NCBI RefSeq assembly: GCF_000372725.1
Contig: NW_005202427.1
Span: 310,001-374,000 of the forward strand
Source: Emiliania huxleyi CCMP1516
Taxonomy: Eukaryota
Length of the DNA stretch: 64,000 nt
Reading direction: 5' to 3'
Translations under genes and position numbers: made by a program
Notes under the pieces: generated by a model
The model's input: the letters and a program-made list of their open reading frames with translations, nothing else
What the model was told of the DNA's origin: nothing
Databases searched by the model: none
Shown: positions 14,490 through 64,000 of the stretch, piece by piece
Position numbering within the stretch: position 1 is the first letter of the stretch
Layout of the letters: each line of letters starts with the position of its first letter

Positions 14490-15081
14490 ACATCGCGACT
14501 CTGCCCGCTCGCTCGACCCTTTTGCCGCGAGAGGGCGCCGGCCGCGTGTAAGAGGTGGCTGGCGCCCTGAGGCGGCAATTGGTGGCGTGGGGAGTGCGGA
14601 ACGCTACTGGCGGCGCGACAGGGCCTCTCTCGATTGCGTGTGCCGCCCATCGGCACGCGGGTGCGCAGACATCGCGACTCTGCCCGCTCGCTCGACCCTT
14701 TTGCCGCGAGAGGGCGCCGGCCGCGTGTAAGAGGTGGCTGGCGGCCTGGCGCCCTGAGGCGGCATTTGGTGGGGTCAGCGTGCGGTGCTGAGTCTTACTC
14801 GTCGGCGCTGGGGCCACAGATCCCAGCGCAGAACTCTGCAACGCTGGCATACAAACACAAGAAGACTAACCCTAACCCTAACCCTAACCCTAACCCTAAC
14901 CCTAACCCTAACCCTAGGTCAGCGTGCGGTGCTGAGTCTTACTCGTCGGCGCTGGGGCCAGATCCCAGCGCAGAACCCTGCAACGCTGGCATATACAAAC
15001 ACAACAAGACTAACCCTGACCCTAACCCTAACCCTAACCCTAACCCTAACCCTCTAACCCTAATAACCGCCTAACCTAACC
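14490..15081. repeat. Internally duplicated element with interstitial telomere-type (CCCTAA)n tracts
   Basis: Duplications at about 14490-14590/14670-14770 and 14774-14916/14917-15050. (CCCTAA)n tracts at 14866-14916 and 15010-15081. Confidence 0.9.
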
Positions 15082-37099: not shown

Positions 37100-37950
37100 G
37101 GCGGGGGGATGCGGATTGTGAAGAGATCCCTCACAACAAGAGAGATCGTGCAGGGCGGGGACACACATGTACATGTCCATGTCCCTACCCTTTCCAGCCA
37201 AGGGATCCGTGTATCCGGGCTGCGGTGACTCCCCCAGGCCAGGGGCCAGCAAGAGGCACGACGGCTCCCATATCTCCCCCTCGTGGTCGCCCTCGCCCCC
37301 CGCCTCCTCCAGGAGCCGGGCCGCGGAGTCTTGCTCTAGGTTGCTGATGAACTCGATGGCCTCCACCCCATACAGATATTTTAGTCGGCGAAGATGTGGG
37401 TGGCCTCGCCGGCTGGACATCGCTAGGGGGGGACAGTGACTGTGCGGGTAGCCTCGCCGTCCAGGCACCTCTAGGGGGGGACAGCCTAGTCGCTGCGAGC
37501 CCGAGTTGGAGTGAGCACTCGCCGTCGTCCAGTGATAGCCCCTTCCACTGGTGAGAGCGTCCTGGGGCGGCGGTCAATCTCGATCGGCGGTCCACGGGGT
37601 GGCTGGGCGAACCGAAGAGCCCTTCGTTGGGCTGCAGCCGCCTCGCTCTCCCCCCCCGACGGCCGCCAGCGTACCCACCTCCCGGTCGCCTCCTCAGTCG
37701 GGAGCACGTCCCGGCTCATACCCCTCTTGCGGCTAACCGCCGTCGGGCCGAAGCGATCGAGTCGCCGCTGGAGGATGGAGTCCTCTTCTGTGGTGGGCAC
37801 CCACGGCCATGAGACCGACCCCTCGGCCGGGTCCACTCGCCCCGAGGGGGCTCTCCTCGCCTCCTCCCACCCCTGCCGGCGTCTCCGCTTGCCAGGCGGC
37901 GGAACCACCCCACTCGTCCCAGCCTCCCTCGCGCGACCCTGCGGAATCCC
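37100..37950 (-). mobile_element. Probable degraded retroelement remnant
   Basis: Broken purine-rich ORFs on the minus strand without host-like codon bias, next to the LINE-UTR motif at 36799-36856. Confidence 0.3.
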
Positions 37951-37959
37951 CAGTCGCTC

Positions 37960-39581
37960 GATCCCACCCGCCGCCTCCCTCCACCTCGCCCTCGCCGCCG
38001 CCCCCCTCCGCCTCGCCCGCCGCCTCCCTCCGCGTCGCCGTCGCCGCCGCCCCCCTCCGCCTCGCCGTCGCCGCCGCCTCCCTCCGCGTCGCCGTCGCCG
38101 CCGCCTCCCTCTGCCTCGCCGTCGCCGCCACCCGGCTCGCCGCCGCCGCCCTCGCCGCCGCCGCCCAGCCCGCCTCCGCCAAGCCCGCCGCCGCCGTCGC
38201 CGCCGCCCTCTCCGCCCCCGTCGCTGCCGCCCTCTCCGCCCCCGTCACCGCCGCCCTCTCCGCCCCCGTCGCCGCCGCCCTCGCCGCCGCCCTCGCCGCC
38301 GCCATCACCTCCGCCGCCCTCCGCCCCGCCCTCCGCCCCGCCCTCCGCCTCGCCGTCGCCGCCGCCTCCCTCGGCCTCGCCGTCGCCGCCGCCTCCCTCC
38401 GCCTCGCCGTCGTCGCCGCCGCCTCCCTCTGCCTCGCCGTCGCCGCCACCCGGCTCGCCGCCGCCACCCTCGCCGCCGCCGCCCAGCCCGCCTCCGCCAA
38501 GCCCGCCGCCGCCGTCGCCGCCGCCCTCTCCGCCCCCGTCGCTGCCGCCCTCTCCGCCCCCGTCACCGCCGCCCTCTCCGCCCCCGTCGCCGCCGCCCTC
38601 GCTGCCGCCCTCGCCGCCGCCATCACCTCCGCCGCCGCCCTCCGCCCCGCCCTCCGCCCCGCCCACGCCGCCGCCGCCAACGTCGCCTTTACCTGACGTG
38701 GACCCGCCGTGCTTCCCGAGCTCTGCGACGGTTCAGCGCGCCGACGGCGAGACCGCCCTCCTCTCCTCCCTCTCCGCCGGCGACTCGATCCTCGCCGCGG
38801 CGGCCGACGGCACCCTCGCTTTCGATGGCGTGAGAGCGTTTTCATCTGTTTCACAGTCGCTTACTTCTACTAGGCACCCTCGGCTTCGACGTCGTCTCCT
38901 CCTTCTCGCTGGCCCACCCGTCCGCCAAGGCGGCTTTCCTCTCGCTCGCCACCGCGACGGCGACGGTCACGCTCACCCCGACGCACAAGCTGCCCGCCGG
39001 CCCGGCAAAGGCGCTCAAGCAGGCGTCCGAGGTTGCCGTCGGAGAGACGATCTGGCTCGCGTCGCCGGCCGCGGGCACGCTCGTGCAGGCGCGTCTATAC
39101 CCCCAGCACCACACACACATCCCTGCCTCTCCCTATGCGACCCCCCCCCCCCCCCTCCTGCCAGGGGCCCGTCCTCAAGATAACCAAGGTCGTGGCCGAC
39201 GGGCTGCACAGCCCGCTCACCAAGCACGGAGGCTGGCCGGTCGTCGACGGCGTCGCGACCTCGTACAACAGCGCGGCTGTCGTCGCGCGCAACAAGTACC
39301 TCGTCCCGCTCGTCGAGGCGGTCTGCCCCTGCCTCGGCCGCCTCGTCGTGGCGGCCGTGAACCCCAAGCCGATGCACTACATCGATGGCGAGGTGAGCCC
39401 TCTCCCGCCGTCCCAAGTTATATCTCACTTGTCCCCACTCCTCCCCACCCCATCGCCCACGTTCGCCTCTCGCTCTCGACCAAAGGTGGTCGAGCCAATC
39501 TCATCGCTCGAGGTCGCCGCTGCCGTGGCCGTCACGGCCGCCGCCACTCTTGGCGTGCGCAAGATCACGGCGCGCAAGTAA
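37960..39581 (+). CDS. Pro/Ser-rich protein with Hedgehog-type Hint domain; 5' end missing or frameshifted
   Basis: SPPP repeats then PPCFPSSATVQRADG..LSAGDSIL, VTLTPTHKL, ASEVAVGETIW, GLHSPLT..VVDGVATSY. Introns 38810-38873, about 39089-39164 and 39393-39486. No start codon found; register shift near 38016. Confidence 0.8.
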
Positions 39582-47724: not shown

Positions 47725-48145
47725 ACCCAGTTTTCCGGAAAACAAAAAGGAAAACAGAGGTCCCCAGCACTTTGCGTTTCCGGAAATTTCCAGGGAACAG
47801 AGGGTGTTTGGTGCTCCATTCTGGAAACTCGCGAGTTTCCCTGAGTCTGAGAGCTGGTCTGGGGCAAAATCTGAGGCAAAATTGAGGAAATCGACAAAAT
47901 ACCCAGGCGGTCGCAGGGTAATTTCCAGGTATACACGGGTTCTCCGCGAAATTCCCGGCATTTTGCTGATTTGGCCTAAAATTTGGCTGATTTTGGGCCC
48001 AAACCAGCCTCAGTGCTCAGACTCGGCTCAGAGGACAGAGCCAAAAATTTGACGATTTCCACGCAGTTTTCCCGGGAAAATAGAGAGGAAAAGAGAGGGT
48101 GTTGTAGAGAAAAAAGGAAAGGAAAACAGACGGGGTGCGAGAGGC
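47725..48145. mobile_element. Dispersed non-coding MITE-like repeat; inverted partial copies at about 53120-53335 and 57870-58075
   Basis: CCCCAGCACTTTGCGTTTCCGGAAATTTCCAGGG.. and GGTAATTTCCAGGTATACACGG..GGCCTAAAATTTGGCTGATTTTGG recur as reverse complements. Confidence 0.8.
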
Positions 48146-48399
48146 AAACCGGGTTGAGCCCAAAGCACTGGTGGACGAGAGAGTTCTCCTTCTCTCTATA
48201 GACCAGCGGGCGCAGCGCCATTGGAGGTTTTCTCTTCTCAATCACAAGGTCTGGGGTCCCGTACCATTCGGAGGTAGGTAGGTAGAAATTCGGAATCGAC
48301 CAGTGAAAAGAAATCCCAGCCACGTAAGAAAATCCACCTCCCGAACACGGGCAGTACCCGGTAACACAGGGTTGTCCACAACAGCGGGCGCTCGGCACC

Positions 48400-49083
48400 A
48401 TGGATCGCAGACCTCAGGCCGGCACCACGGTTTTGGACGTGGGCGGCTGGCGGGTCGTCGTCACCGACGGGCACACAGTGCTGCCCGATGGCATGACGCA
48501 CCTGCCCGACGACGCGTTCTACGGGCACCGCAGCGCCCTCATCTCTGTCGTCTGCCCGAGCAGCCTCGTCTCCATCGGCGATCGTGCCTTCTATTCCAAC
48601 TTTTACCTCACCTCCATCACCCTTCCCGCCGGGCTCACGTCAATCGGCGAATCAGCCTTCTATTACTGCTGTTCACTCGCCTCCATCTCCTCCGTCGACT
48701 CCCACGCCCTTTTCACCTTCCCCGCCAGCCTCGCCTCCATCGGTCGCTACGCCTTTTACGCTGGCCGCATCGACTTTGCTCCAATCATGCCTGGCTCCTC
48801 GCGCACGCGCGTTACGGTGCCAGCCACCGCCCAGATCGGCGAGGAGGCCTTCCCCTACGCTGCCACCATCCTCCGCGTCCCGCCCGCGAGCATGCGCGCC
48901 CAGGAGCGGCTCCTCTTCTTCTACAAGGGCGCGCTGGCCTACAAGCGCTGCCGCCCCGGCCTACTCGGCTGGCTAGAGCGGGCCCAGATCAGGCTCGGCG
49001 CTTACGGTCCGGACGGCGCGGCGCGCCAGCGCGACCTGGAGGAGTTCGAAGGCGACTGTGCGCTAGCTGCGATCCATGCGTGA
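48400..49083 (+). CDS. BspA-type (LRR_5) leucine-rich repeat protein
   Basis: Repeats PSSLVSIGDRAFY, LTSITLPAGLTSIGESAFYYC and PASLASIGRYAFY. Confidence 0.85.
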   Translation: MDRRPQAGTTVLDVGGWRVVVTDGHTVLPDGMTHLPDDAFYGHRSALISVVCPSSLVSIGDRAFYSNFYLTSITLPAGLTSIGESAFYYCCSLASISSVDSHALFTFPASLASIGRYAFYAGRIDFAPIMPGSSRTRVTVPATAQIGEEAFPYAATILRVPPASMRAQERLLFFYKGALAYKRCRPGLLGWLERAQIRLGAYGPDGAARQRDLEEFEGDCALAAIHA

Positions 49084-49808
49084 CTGAGTGGTGTGGCAGC
49101 GCGGGGGTGGAGCTGTCTCTTAGCACAAGGTTTGTTGTTGCAAAACGAGAGAAAGACAACCGCCGCGGCCTACGTCAACTCAGGCATCCCACACCCAGGC
49201 TCTGCGCCCGCATGGCCGCAAGGGCCAAGGACCGGCGGCGGCGCCACCTGACCTCGCACCTGCGGCACTTCCTGCGTGCTGCGTGATCTCGGCTGTGCTG
49301 ACGTCCGTACAGCCTTCACAGCTGGTGCTATCTGAATATCTGCTACAGCGCCCATGGTAGAGTTCTTACGACAGGCGTCCGTCCGTTCCGACGTCGAGCT
49401 TCCTCCGTGACCTCCGGGATGCGCGCGCCCAGCTGCGCGCGACGCTCATCACCAACCGAACAGAGCTCCCCGGCCAGGCAGACCATTTGTCGAGGCGGTT
49501 TAGGATCGTTTAATAGTCATGTGTAGTGACCGTCTAGGCGAAACTGCTAGAGTAGCTGTCGCCCTTTAGGGCGACATGATGGTGTTTTGGCGCGAGGGGG
49601 GGCGTGCAAGTGGCTAGAATGCCTAGCGCCGTCGTCCTGGGGGGGACCGGGGAGGGTGCCCGCCGGAATTCCGGCGAAGACTAGCACTCCAGTCGTGGTC
49701 CCATTGGTCAGACGGACCTGCGCTCCCTCGTGTGCCTGCCGGGTTCTCTCCTGCTTTCTGGCGCATCAGCTGTGGCCTCGCCCGAGTGTCTCTCGTCTCG
49801 CTACTCGA

Positions 49809-55078: not shown

Positions 55079-55521
55079 TACGGGACCCCGCCCCCGTAAC
55101 TTATATGCTGGTGGGATAACTTCAGCAAGCTGTGTGGCTTTCTTCACCTCCGTGTGTGCCGCTGCGCATGTTCTAAGTTTCTGTACGTAAAGGAGTTTTG
55201 CGCCGCCGTGAAAGTCCGGAACCTAGGGGGGGGGTGTTGAGAAGGAAAGGGGGGGGGGGGCAGCCCAAGCCCGGCGAGGGGGGGGGGGGGGGCCCCCCCG
55301 GGCCCGAACCCTCTTTTTAACAAACGGCGGCCGCGGAAGAAAAAACTTTAATTTTTTACCCGGGGCCGGGACCCACTCGAGTTTGAACTTCATGTTGAAC
55401 CAGTTCCCCCCCCCCGCGGGGGTATGCACGCCAAAGAGAGTCGATAGACGCAGCTCATGGAGAAGGCTGTGTGACGGGTTCATGTGAAGGCTGTGTGAAG
55501 AACAACGTGTGGAAGTAAAGT

Positions 55522-56552
55522 GCTACTGGTTACTGGAGACTGTGCAGAGCAGTACTATTATTACTGGTTACTGGAGACCGTGCAGAGCACTCCTATTATG
55601 ACTGTGGTTACTAGACTGTGCAGAGCAGTACTATTACTGGGGACTGTGCAGAGTCCTGCTGCTGGTTACTGGAGACTGTGCAGAGCACTCCTATTATGAC
55701 TGTGGTTACTAGACTGTGCAGAGCAGTACTATTACTGGGGACTGTGCAGAGTCCTGCTGCTGGTTACTGGAGACTGTGCAGAGCACTCCTATTATGACTG
55801 TGGTTACTAGACTGTGCAGAGCAGTACTATTACTGGTTACTAGACTGTGCAGAGCAGTACTATTACTGGGGATGGTTACTGGAGACTGTGCAGAGCACTC
55901 CTATTATGACTGTGGTTACTAGACTGTGCAGAGCAGTACTATTACTGGGGACTGTGCAGAGTCCTGCTGCTGCTGGTTACTGGGGACTGTGCAGAGCACT
56001 CCTATTCTTACTGGTTACTAGACGGTGCGGAGCAGTACTATTACTGGTTACTAGACTGTGCAGAGCAGTACTATTACTGGGGACTGTGCAGAGTCCTGCT
56101 GCTGCTGGTTACTGGGGACTGTGCAGAGCACTCCTATTCTTACTGGTTACTAGACTGTGCAGAGCAGTACTATTACTGGGGACTGTGCAGAGCACTCCTA
56201 TTCTTGCTGGTTACTAGACTGTGCAGAGCAGTACTATTACTGGGGACTGTGCAGAGCACTCCTATTCTTGCTGGTTACTAGACTGTGCAGAGCAGTACTA
56301 TTACTGGGGACTGTGCAGAGCACTCCTATTCTTGCTGGTTACTAGACTGTGCAGAGCAGTACTATTACTGGGGACTGTGCTGTGCAGAGCACTCCTATTA
56401 TGACTGGGGACTGGAGACTGTGCAGAGCCACTCCTATTATTACTGGTACTAGACTGTGCAGAGTACTATTATTACTGGTTACTGGAGATTGTGCAGAGCA
56501 CTCCTATTATGACTGAGGACTGGAGACTGTGCAGAGCACTCCTGTATGACTG
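55522..56552. repeat. Complex satellite of ~25-40-bp units anchored on GACTGTGCAGAG
   Basis: About 30 units alternating GCAGTACTATTACT, CACTCCTATT and TCCTGCTGCT variants. Confidence 0.95.
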
Positions 56553-59251: not shown

Positions 59252-59794
59252 CAGTGCTCAAACTTTACCGGTATGGGAGTTTTTGGCTCATCAAACCGCC
59301 AAGGCCTGCACTAATCAAAAAGTGGTACGGGATACCAGTTGCCTCACGGAAATCAAAGCGAGTCGGAGTGCCTTCTTGGTGGCAAAATCGGCAAAATCGG
59401 CAAAATACCGGGGCATTTTGCGGGTAGCCTGCCGACGCGCCACGGGCCGGCGCCCGTGTGCCTCGCCGCCGCGTCCGGCGACGGCATCGATGCTGTCTGC
59501 CCGAGCGTGACTCGCAACTCCACGATTTGCGGTCCACCGACAAATTTGGCTGCCCCCATCAAAGTTGACTTCTCTCCTTAGATACACATACATACCTGGA
59601 AAAACCCGGGTATACACCCGGGTAATACCCGCGCACTTTTGCATGGTTTCACGCGCCCCCGGGACCACACCGACAGCCGCTACAACTAATGAAAACCCCG
59701 CATACCACTTTCGCATACCACTATACCATACCACTCCAAAGCTAATCAAAATATCGCCAAATACCGGTCTCATACCGGTAAAGTTTGAGCACTG
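59252..59794. mobile_element. MITE with 24-bp perfect TIRs (CAGTG start, hAT-like)
   Basis: CAGTGCTCAAACTTTACCGGTATG / CATACCGGTAAAGTTTGAGCACTG; subterminal (C)ATACC repeats; no TSD seen. Confidence 0.85.
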
Positions 59795-59827
59795 CGCCAC
59801 ACGCGACCGTCGCACTCGTGTCCCCCC

Positions 59828-61799
59828 TCACCACTCGTACCCTGCGTGCATGCTGAAGCTGGTCTCGTCGAGAGAGAGGTGGCCCGTGTCGCCGAGGGAG
59901 ATCATCGAGACGGAACCCGTCGGGCGGATCTTGAGGTGCGTGAGGGAGCAGTTGTAGGTGCAGAGCCGCAGCCACGCCTCGGGCGGCAGCTGCAGCGCGC
60001 GCAGCGCCATGTAGCGGATCACGTTGCCGTGGCACACGACGATGTCGTACTCGTGCTGCGACACGCGCGGCGGCTTGCTCGCGCGGGGGCTGAGCTTGCC
60101 GGGGGCGGTCGCGGCGCCGGCGGCGCCGTCGGAGGCCGCCTCCGCAGCGCCGTCGCCCCGCCCGCCGCCAGCGCCGTCGTCGGGGGGGTAGGGCGGCCTG
60201 CCCCGGTAGACGAGGGCCCGATAAGCGGCCTCCATGCGCGCGCCCTCGACGTGCACCTCGCGCGCACCGTCCGCCAGCGCGCCCTTGGAGTACGGGATGC
60301 GGTGCGCGGGCGGGTACCCCTCGGCCAAGTTCGGGTCCGGCGCGAGCCTGCGGGAGGTTCCGAGAAGGTTCCGAGAAGGTTCCGAGAAGGTTCCGAGGAG
60401 GGGTCCCCCTCGGCCAAGTTCGGGTCCGGCGCGAGCCTGCGCACCCTCCCGGCGGGCAGCTCTGCGGCGATGAGGTCCGCGGTCTCCTTGGCGCGGGTCA
60501 GGGTGCCTAGAAGGTGACAACAACGCTCCCTCGCACGACACTGGGCACGGGACTGGCGCGCACTGGCTCTAACAAGAAGCAGACTACGCCAACCTCAGGG
60601 CGGGGAGACGGACTCGTGCGGAGTAGGTGGCCATGCATACGGCGGTGTGCAGAGTACTAGTGGTGCATCTACCAATCTCGGGGCGGCCTACGTGCCAATA
60701 CGCCAACCTCGGGGCACGAATACGGTGTTGTGCAGCGTCTTCAGAGCACCGCGAGAATACAACGGAGAAGAGTACAGTGGATACAGCGGAAGACGGGTGA
60801 ACACAGCTGAATGCGCGTCCTCTCGGGCGCTAGTTCGGATACCTGAATACGTGTGTCCGCTTCTAGGTCAGCGTGCTCACGTGGAGCCGCACGTGCGCCT
60901 CGCGCCCCTCCTCCTGCAGCGCGCCGCGGAGCATCTCCGCAATCCGCCGGCCGGTGGCGGTGGCCTGCTGCCTGCCGAGCGGCGTGAGGGTCTGCTCGGC
61001 GTCGAGGCGCGGGAAGGCCTCGTCGAGCGGCATGCCAAAGTCGCGGTCGGGCACGCCTACAGGAAGGCACCAGGAAGGGTCTAGGAAAGGTCCGAGAAGC
61101 GGCATGCCAAAGTCGCGGTCGGGCACGCCGGCAGGGCGGGAGAGAGCGCGCGAGAGCGGCCTCTGCTCGTCGTACTGGCCGTGCCGCACGAGGATGATGT
61201 GGCGGGTGGGCGCGCCTGGGGCGGCAGCGGTGGTGGCCATGCGGGTGACGGCGAGGCGAGGCGGGGGCGAGAGGGAGACGGGGAGGAGCGAGGGAGGAGA
61301 CGGAGGATGAAGAGAGCGCAGCCGAGAGAGCGGCCGTGGCACCTCCGTACGCGTGCTCGAGGTACGCGCGCCGGTAGAGCGCAGGCAGCTCCGCCTCGGG
61401 CGTCCGCTCCAGCAGCCGCTCCACGCGCTCGCTCGACCTGTTGGTGTGCTCGGCGTAGAGCGATCGCACGGCGTCGGCATAGTCGGCGATGGGCCAGGCG
61501 TGGCGGAGCGCGCGAGCCACCTCGCGGTCCGACGGCTCGCAGTAGTCCCAGTTCCGGTCCCACGCCGGGTACGGCCTCGCCGGCAGGAAGCGCTGCTCCT
61601 CATACTCGGCGGGCAGGTCCTGGAAGCGGATGTCATCGTCCGCCTCGCACGACGCGGCGCGCTGGAGCGCGACCGTGCCGGCGGCGGCGGCGATAGCCGC
61701 GGCGGCGGCGGCGGCGGCGGGTGCGGACGCGGCGGAGGAGCGAGAGAGGGTGGAGTGGCGTCGCGATGCCGCTCGCACTGTCGCCCTCGCAAACAACAT
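59828..61799 (-). CDS. PGAM5: PGAM5 mitochondrial Ser/Thr protein phosphatase; 5 exons
   Basis: Mitochondrial-type presequence; WDRNWD, HIILVRHGQY, LTPLGRQQA, STLTRAKETA, LAEG, IVVCHGNVIRY, ALQLPPEAWLR and GDTGHL. Introns 61216-61342, 61057-61128, 60507-60876 and 60348-60436. Confidence 0.92.
60507..60866. mobile_element. Intron-forming insertion (introner-like) with CTAGAAG TIRs and ~10-bp TSD
   Basis: Ends CTAGAAG (60507-60513) and CTTCTAG (60860-60866); flanks GTCAGGGTGC and GTCAGCGTGC. Confidence 0.65.
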
Positions 61800-61896
61800 G
61801 ATGTGCCGAACGGGGCGCTATGAAGAATTCTCGCGTTGCACCCGACCCACCCGAGGTTTCTCAGCTTCGGCCGGCGCCCCAGGTAAGCCGGGATAG

Positions 61897-62053
61897 TATA
61901 TATTAAATGAACTCGGGGGCACAGGACGCGGTACAAACGGGGTACACCAAAAGGCACGGGCTGCCTGCACGGCGTTCACTCGAACGCCATGCACATGGCG
62001 CGGAGCAGCATCGGGTTGGTGTCGAACCCGAGCGGGTCCTCCTCCCAGTCCCG
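61897..62053 (-). mobile_element. ~155-bp SINE-like element, copy 2, with 11-bp TSD
   Basis: AGCCGGGATAG at 61886-61896 and 62054-62064; AT-rich tail. Confidence 0.85.
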
Positions 62054-62207
62054 AGCCGGGATAGAATTTTGAGGTTAAATGATTTTTCCTGGAGCTTAAG
62101 AAAGAAAGAAAACAGCGTCTAAAACTCAAAAAAAAACGCTCACACAGATGCCGGTTCGAGGAACTCTCCGCATCGCTCGCCCGGACCGCACCTGTTCCTC
62201 GAGCGCG

Positions 62208-64000
62208 ATGTCGACCCTGATCGCGCTCATCTGCGTCGCTCCGGCGGCAGCCTTCCGCACGGGCGTGTGGCATCACCCTCCCGACGCGTCAACTTCCTCC
62301 TCTCTTTTTCCTCGGGCCGCGACCGCGGCGATGCAGCTCCCGGGGATGGCGCAGGCGGCCACCGCCGCTGCCACGGTGGTGCAGGAGGTGGCCGGCTCGG
62401 TTCAGGACGTCGAGGCGCCCGACGCGGACGACAGCTTCGTCGCCATCGACGAGAGCCGCACCGGCCTGGTCGACGAGGAGGGCCTTCCGCTGGTGTATGA
62501 CAAGGAGGCGATCCAAAAGTACTGGGAGGGGCAGGGCGGCGCGCTGCAGTCGCGCTGGGCGGAGTTTCTGTCGGTGAGCGTTCCCTTCCTCACGCGCGTG
62601 GCGGCGCTCCTCGTCTCGGGCGGCACCGACGCGCTGAACGACTCGGCCTCGGAGCTCGCACGCGACGCCCGAGAGCGGATCCAAAAGTTGGGGCCGACGT
62701 ACGTCAAGATGGGACAGATGATGTCGGTGCGGCCCGACATCCTGCCTCAGGCGGCGCTCGACGAGCTCACCATCCTGCAAGACGGCGTCGAGGGCTTCCC
62801 CGCTGACGTGGCGCGCGAGATGGTCGAGGAGGAGCTTGGCGCCCCGATCGACGAGTTGTTTTCCGACTTCTCGGCCGAGCCGGCGGCGGCGGCCTCGCTG
62901 GCGCAGGTCTTCCGGGCGACGCTCCGCTCGAGCGGCGAGCCCGGCGGCGGTCGACTCGCTCCCCTCGGCTGGAGCCCTCACCGTCGTCGAAGATTGCCCA
63001 CAGGCGAGGCTGTGGCGGTCAAGGTGCAGCGGCCGGGAGTCCAGTCCCTCGTCTCCAAAGACCTGTACGTGCTGCGGCGGGCGGCGGAGGTCTACCAGGG
63101 GCTGGCGAGCCGCCGCTGCCCGCGCCCTCCGCGGTCCGCGCCCAGCGCCAGGGCCGCGCGCGTGTCCCGCGTGTAGGTCGAGCGTTTCGCGCCGCAGCAG
63201 CGCACCGACTACGTCGGCTTGCTCAACGAGTGGGCAGTCGGCTTCTACACGGAGCTGGACTTCAAGAACGAGGCGAGTCGTTCACTCTTTCACTGCAACA
63301 TGCGGTCCTTCTCCGCCTCCGTCTCCTCCTTTTCCTCCGCCGCCGTCTCCTCCGCCGCCGTCTCCTCCTCCTCCCTCTCCACCTCCTCCTTCTCCGCCTC
63401 CTCCGTCTCCGCCTAGCAGCGCGCCGGCAGGCGGCGGGAGAGCTTGGGGCGCGTGTCTCAGGCCGGTGCCGCGCGCCGCGTAGGCGGCGAACATGCAGAC
63501 GATGGCGCGCGGCCTCGCCGAGGCGGGCGTCACCGACGTGGCGGTGCCGCGCGTGTACGAGGCGCTGACGACGCGGCGCGTGCTCGTGAGCGAGTGGATC
63601 GACGGGCGGAAGCTGTCCGAGTGCTCGACCGAGGAGGTCCGCGAGCTCGTCGCCATCGGTCAGGAGTGCTTCCTCGTGCAGCTGCTGCAGACAGGCCCCA
63701 CTCCCTCGCCTCCGCCGCCGGCCCCCGGCAGGGCGCGCCTCGGGCGTCTCGCGGAGCGGCTTCTTTGACCCTTCTCTAGGCTTCTTCCACTCGGACCCGC
63801 ACCCGGGTAACCTGATGCGGCCGCACGACCAGAGCCGTGCGCGGTGCGACTTTCCCCCCTCACCCGCCTGGCCCGCGCCCCGCCCTCTAGCCCAGCGAGG
63901 CCCGAGCGACGCGCACGCCCGCCGAGGAGAAGGAGAAGGCTGTTGCGCGGCGCGACCCGCCCCCCTGCGTGCCTGCCGGCGGGCGCAGGCTCGTGCTGAT
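62208..64000 (+). CDS. ABC1K: ABC1/UbiB atypical protein kinase (plastid ABC1K-like); runs off the window end
   Basis: LGPTYVKMGQMMSVRPDIL, AAASLAQVFRA, VAVKVQRPG, ELDFKNE, LVSEWIDGRKL and GFFHSDPHPGNL across GC-AG introns; signal peptide ending AAA-F. Confidence 0.92.

Follow-up and report, generated by a model that had tools for sequence, protein, structure and literature searches.

How are the short introns of Emiliania huxleyi, a bloom-forming and globally important alga, made? The origin of new spliceosomal introns is largely open outside transposon-derived introners, and the window (the whole 64-kb stretch of DNA that was analysed) contains one gene with two introns that carry related ~11-nt repeat filler between long direct repeats. 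Tandem repeats of 10-11 bp are reportedly enriched in E. huxleyi introns, and an earlier note on this DNA proposed that a staggered cut with templated repeat addition gives both the long duplication and the acceptor, as a dedicated intron-generating mechanism. We find that many short introns of E. huxleyi are made up of two parts, a duplicate of the 16-41 bases with which the following exon begins and, after it, a 10-11-base repeat that they have in common, and that the finding concerns a general duplicate-plus-filler module, beyond one 11-mer. The evidence for the module's anatomy and for its being an intron is good; what is said below about enzyme, template type and genome-wide share is tentative.

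The gene encodes a PGAM5-like histidine phosphatase on the minus strand (59828-61799) in five exons (61799-61343, 61215-61129, 61056-60877, 60506-60437 and 60347-59828). Removal of three inserts of 89, 72 and 370 nt and of a 127-nt intron results in a 437-aa frame that is open to its stop. EMIHUDRAFT_199455, a protein from E. huxleyi CCMP1516, is 100% identical to a 120-aa piece of the product in the part that aligns, and PGAM5-named homologs are also among the protein matches of this piece. Exon 2 is missing from the CCMP1516 gene model, and duplicate-filler introns may help explain mispredicted models such as this one.

The 89-nt GC..AG intron (60348-60436, minus strand) begins with the exon-start copy and continues with 11-nt filler. 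Its duplicate is a perfect 36-nt direct repeat, with the upstream copy on the transcript strand at 60406-60441 and the downstream copy, 89 nt away, at 60317-60352. Between them lies a 53-nt filler (60353-60405) of what we call family A (unit CCTTCTCGGAA on the transcript strand). As the earlier note had read it, this filler is a tandem repeat: AAGGTTCCGAG stands at 60365, 60376 and 60387, which are all of its exact occurrences in the window, with a degenerate unit on either side. The 72-nt GC..AG intron (61057-61128, minus strand) likewise holds an exon-start copy, here part of a perfect 32-nt direct repeat (upstream copy 61098-61129, downstream copy 61026-61057, 72 nt apart), and a 40-nt filler of degenerate family-A units (61058-61097) ending CCTTCCTGTA(G); it is in frame and contains no stop. 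The proposed kinship of the two fillers is borne out by a 34-nt alignment, whose score is equalled by 0.12% of 5000 random 40-mers from the window. That the filler supplies the acceptor AG holds for the 72-nt intron with respect to the A, and fails for the 89-nt intron, where both donor and acceptor are drawn from the duplicate (CAG|GC). The remaining 127-nt GT..AG intron (61216-61342, minus strand) follows from the geometry of one RNA record (X14 record 12), and no duplicate or filler was detected in it.

Public RNA and DNA sequencing runs, which come from different samples, bear on splicing and on presence or absence of the inserts. RNA contigs skip the 89 nt in three of the four runs (60316>60406 in X13 and X14; 60353>60443 in X11) and the 370 nt in two of the four (joint 60502>60873 in X11 and X13). 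Judging by its geometry, X14 record 12 is 72 nt shorter at the 72-nt insert with exon 2 kept, which requires both the 127-nt and the 72-nt skips. Retaining the 89-nt insert would shift the frame to a stop at aa 403, and retaining the 72-nt insert would add 24 aa that are absent in 10/10 aligned homologs. The status of these two inserts as spliceosomal introns is therefore well supported by GC..AG ends, removal in RNA contigs and restoration of the frame.

In DNA runs X1, X2 and X3 the contigs are interrupted at the 36-nt repeat, the pattern expected of insert carriers, and contigs from all four DNA runs break at the 32-nt repeat of the 72-nt intron. In run X7, record 20 reaches 60353 and continues for 111 more letters; a variant at 60457 stands 15 letters off the end of the piece at equal depth, and X11 behaves likewise across its listed joint. 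Going by this contig geometry, X7 appears to be without the 89-nt insert yet with the 370-nt one. SNPs of the insert-less X7 allele recur in the RNA run X11, so the 89-nt skip of that run may be a genomic absence; the splicing that we infer for the 89-nt insert accordingly rests on X13 and X14 and on the frame. The difference between X7 and the insert carriers may reflect gain of the 89-nt intron or its precise loss. Summed contig depth in the filler bin (60353-60405) is ~90-170 times that of single-copy bins across the four DNA runs, which points roughly to many copies without giving their number. In X1 and X3 a further 17-19 contigs exit the window at 60355, their X3 consensus reading CTGCAG|GC on the transcript strand.

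The 370-nt GC..AG intron (60507-60876, minus strand) belongs to a class separate from the duplicate-filler introns. It consists of a 10-nt duplicate with one mismatch and a 360-nt MITE-like element (60507-60866) with CTAGAAG inverted ends and homologs in L076, L058, L055, L046, L034 and L077 among the matches listed; its inverted ends, short duplication and multiple copies make it a MITE-type introner. The suggestion that this insert arose in one process with the fillers is not supported, as it is a separate family with a short duplication that shares only ~10 terminal bases with family A, although the two may have a common origin. For the bin containing 60517-60574 of the element, depth is thousands of times the single-copy level. 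L058 and L076 hold shorter relatives, with ACGTAG ends and 7-11-nt flanking repeats (by eye), that look like classical introners. In L055 and L058 the left end of the element is also duplicated around a filler of the ATCTC family (copies 58 and 52 nt apart; no GY..AG was seen), a hint that the ends of elements are prone to breakage.

Downstream, a gene with an ABC1 domain (ABC1K) has an 85-nt GC..AG intron on the plus strand (63695-63779; joint in three of the four RNA runs) that ends in ~1.5 degenerate family-A units. In their match to family A, its last 25 nt are equalled or surpassed by only 0.7% of 150 sampled YAG|G sites. The end of the 370-nt insert matches comparably well, but through ~10 nt only; the filler sharing claimed for both places thus stands for the ABC1K intron and, for the insert, does not extend beyond those bases. 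No significant duplicate was found in the 85-nt intron, which is probably an old member of the duplicate-filler class. All four RNA-supported ABC1K introns (62935-63779) are GC..AG, and in the five RNA-supported introns of the window other than the 72-, 89- and 370-nt ones no decayed duplicate is singly significant. A 139-nt low-complexity stretch (63275-63415) within the 211-nt ABC1K intron is missing from the X7, X2 and X3 DNA contigs and is an intron length polymorphism. Elsewhere, the window holds a 144-nt tandem duplication with (CTAACC)n, of interstitial telomere type (14773-15062 and ~48000-49170), with two (TTAGGG)n arrays of the same flank in the reverse-strand listing; a satellite with units of ~32-64 nt that is rich in GACTGTGCAGAG (55520-56550); and a frame with a weak Hint-domain match beside a 318-nt tandem low-complexity repeat (37813-39180).

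One metagenome scan with a two-unit degenerate family-A pattern yielded at least 120 loci, each about 1-1.2 kb. Because loci were chosen by an exact family-A match, family A is over-sampled by design. We left out 28 of the at least 120 loci (flank GC below 60%, or less than 100 nt per side), which gave 92 GC-rich loci with flanks among the matches listed, and a further 9 that repeated the same locus, which gave 83 unique ones. The one locus checked for species, L022, is 99% identical to E. huxleyi CCMP1516, where the gene model has the duplicated peptide once only. Long arrays of a similar 11-mer in low-GC contigs (such as L009, L011, L016, L021, L104 and L108) have no duplicate anatomy in the rows examined; these AT-rich loci probably belong to other organisms.

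An AG-anchored exon-start duplicate stands upstream of the array in 29/83 unique loci among the matches listed, as compared with 0/408 swapped flanks, confirming the predicted association of the 11-mer with flanking direct repeats; 27 of these loci remain once two array self-matches are removed. Unanchored duplicates with a score of at least 20 were found in 21/83 listed loci and in 0/329 controls. Even among 40 weak loci of this list, residual similarity peaks at 70-80 nt spacing (47% vs 11-14% in controls). The pyrimidine strand of the 11-mer is mostly the transcript strand, as had been expected: on the CCTTC strand, 39/83 listed loci have a YAG|G no more than 15 nt after the array, and 12 have one on the opposite strand. 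A codon model built from the two genes of the window favours the splice strand in 28/31 listed cases. Removal of the insert leaves the frame continuous in 11/11 clear cases from the same list, with lengths not a multiple of three. These strand and frame results fit introns lying in coding exons. Overall, 82 family-A 3' ends occur in the 83 motif-selected loci among the matches listed, so that many introns share sequence.

A search for any direct repeat, with the satellite stretches of the window masked, found 67 in the matches listed, and in 37/67 a GY..YAG stands no more than 6 nt from the edge of the repeat, compared with 8.7% under the null. Among listed non-periodic repeats with spacing of 25-200, 58/108 fall at 60-79 nt. 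After removal of 15 of the 67 (array self-matches, doublings and partly aligned cases), 52 curated modules among the matches listed define the anatomy. Their duplicates measure 16-41 nt (median 27; the lower bound is set by the score cut-off), their fillers 21-73 nt (median 43), and total length is 60-79 nt in 44 of them. Perfect duplicates occur in 19/52 listed modules. Together with the apparent lack of the 89-nt insert in X7 and the presence or absence between assemblies described below, this supports the expectation that such introns are young and differ between samples.

The filler has a period of 11 in 31 of these 52 listed modules, 10 in 8, another period in 2 and none in 11. Families among the same 52 are A (29), ATCTC (10), AT-rich (5), GTGTGAA (4), ATGTCC (1) and other (3). 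The process is therefore not specific to the GAAGG-type unit on which the earlier note had focused, as other 10-11-nt families and non-periodic fillers stand in equal architecture. Modules with unlike fillers are even stacked at one exon start (L111, L092 and L031). In another locus, a whole second module of 69 nt with a filler of a 10-nt family is present in one assembly (L043) and absent in the other (L018), and it shares its duplicate end point with the first module. Depending on the assembly (L029 or L039), one 47-nt module is doubled or single; its filler is the telomeric repeat (TTAGGG)n, which by eye matches, inverted, a telomeric stretch ~30-55 nt downstream.

With regard to splice sites, the YAG lies within the duplicate in 12 of the 52 listed modules, wholly or partly in the filler in 30, and is absent in 10. 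The filler thus contributes to the acceptor in 30 of the 42 spliceable listed modules; it provides the A of the AG in 22 of the 42, and in 12 both sites lie in the duplicate. Donors are GC in 32 and GT in 9, with one cut off, among the matches listed. Exonic dinucleotides show the same ratio (GC : GT = 375 : 104), which is what a sampling of donors from exon sequence would give. The donor rule left out GA donors, which do occur in a few loci. In L030, L072 and L038 the sole AG precedes GA, suggesting GA-AG introns made in the duplicate-filler manner. Inverted fillers and modules without splice sites both occur among the matches listed, which suggests that spliceability is imposed by selection. 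The 10/52 listed modules without GY..YAG, together with the inverted fillers, speak against a dedicated intron-generating mechanism and suggest instead a general mutational process that is filtered by selection.

The duplicate-filler-duplicate anatomy, the filler families, the GY..YAG ends, the continuity of the frame and the presence or absence between samples are directly seen. To account for them, we propose that the repair of staggered breaks copies pre-existing filler and that selection retains the spliceable products, a reading to which we give an even chance of being correct. Two offset nicks ~27 bp apart would open the break, and filling in of the overhang would yield the exon-start duplication. 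With 1-6 nt of microhomology, the broken end would then anneal to an array already present and prime there, and a polymerase would copy ~35-55 bases from it; the array might sometimes be a neighbour within 1 kb, more often one elsewhere, and could be read in either orientation. In exons, products would survive only if they read GY..YAG and reach ~60 nt, with whichever GC or GT the exon offered as donor and the AG supplied either by the duplicate or by the intron end that was copied. Each surviving module would be a new template, such that filler families would need no transposase of their own in order to spread.

The simplest account of the duplication is the filling in of a staggered break, a type of damage whose repair yields tandem duplications in mouse cells according to the portion of PMC5730883 that was available. 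Microhomology at the junction of duplicate and filler is weak and above permutation in the matches listed (1.15 vs 0.49 nt), and reaches at least 3 nt in 7/39 listed cases (0.8 expected). The filler must have been copied from a shared pool. The window's two fillers have no match in the rest of the 64 kb (scores 10-11) and good ones in the listed loci (41 and 27). Fillers within one locus are more alike than those between loci (p=0.005, matches listed), and the last 8 nt are common to the fillers in 7/12 listed loci (1.3 expected). We tried purely local templating as a general rule and rejected it, since the best match of a filler scores 12.5 in its own locus and 9.4 in others (p=0.31, matches listed; central arrays were masked, so the comparison is conservative) and a local template falls in the top decile for ~10/50 listed fillers. 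Snap-back synthesis from the duplicate end was also rejected, being not enriched (3.58 vs 3.61). The fillers have no stable fold (z between -0.35 and 1.74). As duplicates lose identity, the arrays stay just as periodic (rho 0.07, in listed loci biased by selection for an exact match at the centre), a result compatible with later refreshing of the arrays. Recurrent 3' tails such as CCTTCCTGYAG (18/67 listed ends, by eye) also fit an RNA or element end. A DNA and an RNA template look alike in these data.

Non-LTR retrotransposition typically gives long, variable target duplications and ragged 5' ends. In a TPRT process, a reverse transcriptase of this type would nick the strands 16-41 bp apart and copy the 3' tail of an excised intron or its own RNA repeat tail, so that the YAG end should be constant and the 5' end ragged. 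The long duplications of variable length found here match that habit, and 3' tails recur; the array phase is locked to the AG (the last CCTTC-type motif is 6 nt before the end in 35/80 cases among the matches listed), and the similarity of fillers within a gene is compatible with locally released intron RNA. However, the YAG comes from the duplicate in 12/52 listed modules and 10/52 are without GY..YAG, and several fillers are pure arrays with no AG tail. As to a fixed 3' end shared with a longer element, tails recur with variation and some fillers have none, and no longer element was seen in the ~1.2-kb listed loci. The search for a reverse transcriptase element or RNA template ending in the unit, which the earlier note had called for, found no source element in viral contigs (0 matches for four patterns) and 6 unrelated-looking matches in prokaryote genomes, no reverse transcriptase or transposase Pfam domain in 43 long frames out of the 72 in the window, and no Rfam match in 59700-64000. 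We regard TPRT as rather unlikely and a "dedicated" machine as unproven. The reading that came nearest to the earlier idea has a telomerase or telomerase-like reverse transcriptase reiterate a 10-11-nt template window onto the broken end, with several RNA templates. It would explain why 39/41 periodic fillers among the matches listed have a period of 10 or 11, why some are perfect four-unit arrays and why one is (TTAGGG)n. Yet that telomeric filler has an inverted local DNA match, 59700-64000 yielded no template RNA in Rfam, and the variation among the units of a filler is ordered and shared across its family while 11/52 listed fillers are non-periodic, which favours copying of a longer template; we consider telomerase-like reiteration very improbable.

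Two further readings do without reverse transcription. A plain ~70-nt tandem duplication across AG|GY could itself be the intron, its 3' half being overwritten later by conversion or slippage from minisatellites suited to splicing. The spliceable listed modules with both sites in the duplicate (12/42, including the 89-nt intron), the second module of L043 with its equal duplicate end point and different filler family, and arrays that are still periodic in introns with decayed duplicates agree with such a history. Where the filler provides the A of the AG (22/42 listed), a duplication without filler would have been unspliceable, however, and perfect 32-36-nt copies meet the filler sharply, with filler starts only slightly like the post-copy sequence (3.23 vs 2.99, p=0.016). 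Duplication before filler seems decidedly unlikely. A tiny non-autonomous DNA transposon, i.e., a classical introner with CTRYAG/CTAG inverted ends and internal 11-nt transposase-binding repeats, is in our judgement quite improbable; its long duplication would have to be ascribed to gap repair. Such ends are present in 5/52 listed fillers, which start CTAGG or CTRYAGG and finish YAG (in one of them, that of L115, sense is the purine strand), the end of the 370-nt MITE is likewise CCTTCTAG, and the text available for PMC9860276 lists E. huxleyi introner families with mean lengths of 37 and 70 nt. Against this stand the lack of inverted ends in most listed fillers and the filler lengths of 21 to 73 nt, the quasi-palindromic nature of the units themselves, the 3-9 bp duplications of known introners (PMC9860276, available text) and the sharing of one anatomy by at least five unlike filler families.

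Returning to staggered-break repair, each young intron keeps its own record, in that the exon-start duplicate marks the break and the filler names the template family. As insert and insert-less alleles segregate, one can date and map the events and follow the process as it happens. Staggered-break repair also offers a candidate and testable cause of the GC-donor oddity of E. huxleyi, because donors taken from GC-rich exons are expected to be ~78% GC. In the available part of PMC4028052, GC donors make up 56% of 241 and 65% of 270 inspected E. huxleyi junctions and are related solely to genome GC content; break-patching with an existing repeat, the likely origin of these introns, would help explain this GC-starting majority. 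More tentatively, and with somewhat less than an even chance, we suggest a transposase-free, self-propagating generator in which minisatellite intron ends enter staggered breaks, the duplication gives the donor and the products reseed the process, and which would be active, have made thousands of introns and alone account for both the GC-AG majority and the 10-11-nt repeats.

Introners are one known system for comparison. E. huxleyi CCMP1516 is credited with 653 introners in 5 families, with mean lengths of 37 or 70 nt and TSD/TIR entered as "?" or "N" (PMC9860276, available text), and a later survey gives 3 families of 5-45 copies (PMC12130899, likewise in part). As in introners, many introns share sequence, the 3' site is carried while the 5' site is often co-opted from the duplication, and GC donors occur. 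Unlike the 3-9 bp duplications described for introners in the accessible text, those of the listed E. huxleyi modules are 16-41 nt; the modules also have no fixed element length, inverted-type ends in only 5/52 (matches listed), and a similarity that stops short of the 5' end, where the first 16-41 nt are a local exon copy. Since the 5' third is a locus-specific exon copy, an introner survey that, by its available description, relies on similarity at both ends and a low-complexity filter would tend to miss these modules, which form a class of repeated introns that end-to-end searches tend to overlook. The listed E. huxleyi introners may overlap the duplicate-filler class in part, as far as a comparison of their descriptions goes.

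The closest parallels on the side of break repair are also partial. No account of long exon duplicates with 10-11-nt fillers was found in the portions of the literature available, including PMC2784329, PMC11347168 and 10.1101/2024.05.26.595999, whose accessible text has nothing on duplicate-filler anatomy; introner sequence files and supplements may bear on this. Intron gain at staggered breaks in Daphnia pulex likewise places a direct repeat of the exon at the opposite intron end, with internal repeats and polymorphism, but as far as the available text of PMC4202315 goes its repeats are 4-12 bp and its introns AT-rich with mostly unknown sources, whereas the E. huxleyi repeats are 16-41 nt and the fillers come from genome-wide 10-11-nt families. 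In AG|GT tandem-duplication gain (PMC3443670, in part), duplicated exon sequence can supply both splice sites, which is also the case for the 89-nt intron, and there is no filler; the E. huxleyi modules have a foreign filler in all curated cases, and only 12/42 spliceable listed modules have both sites in the duplicate, so the intron as a whole is not the duplicate. Overhang-break tandem duplications share paired nicks tens of bases apart, microhomology and occasional inserts, but were made in mouse cells with Cas9 nickases, and the available part of PMC5730883 describes no recurrent repeat-family filler or intron creation. The duplicate-filler module is therefore probably undescribed so far, a variant that stands between break-repair intron gain and introners.
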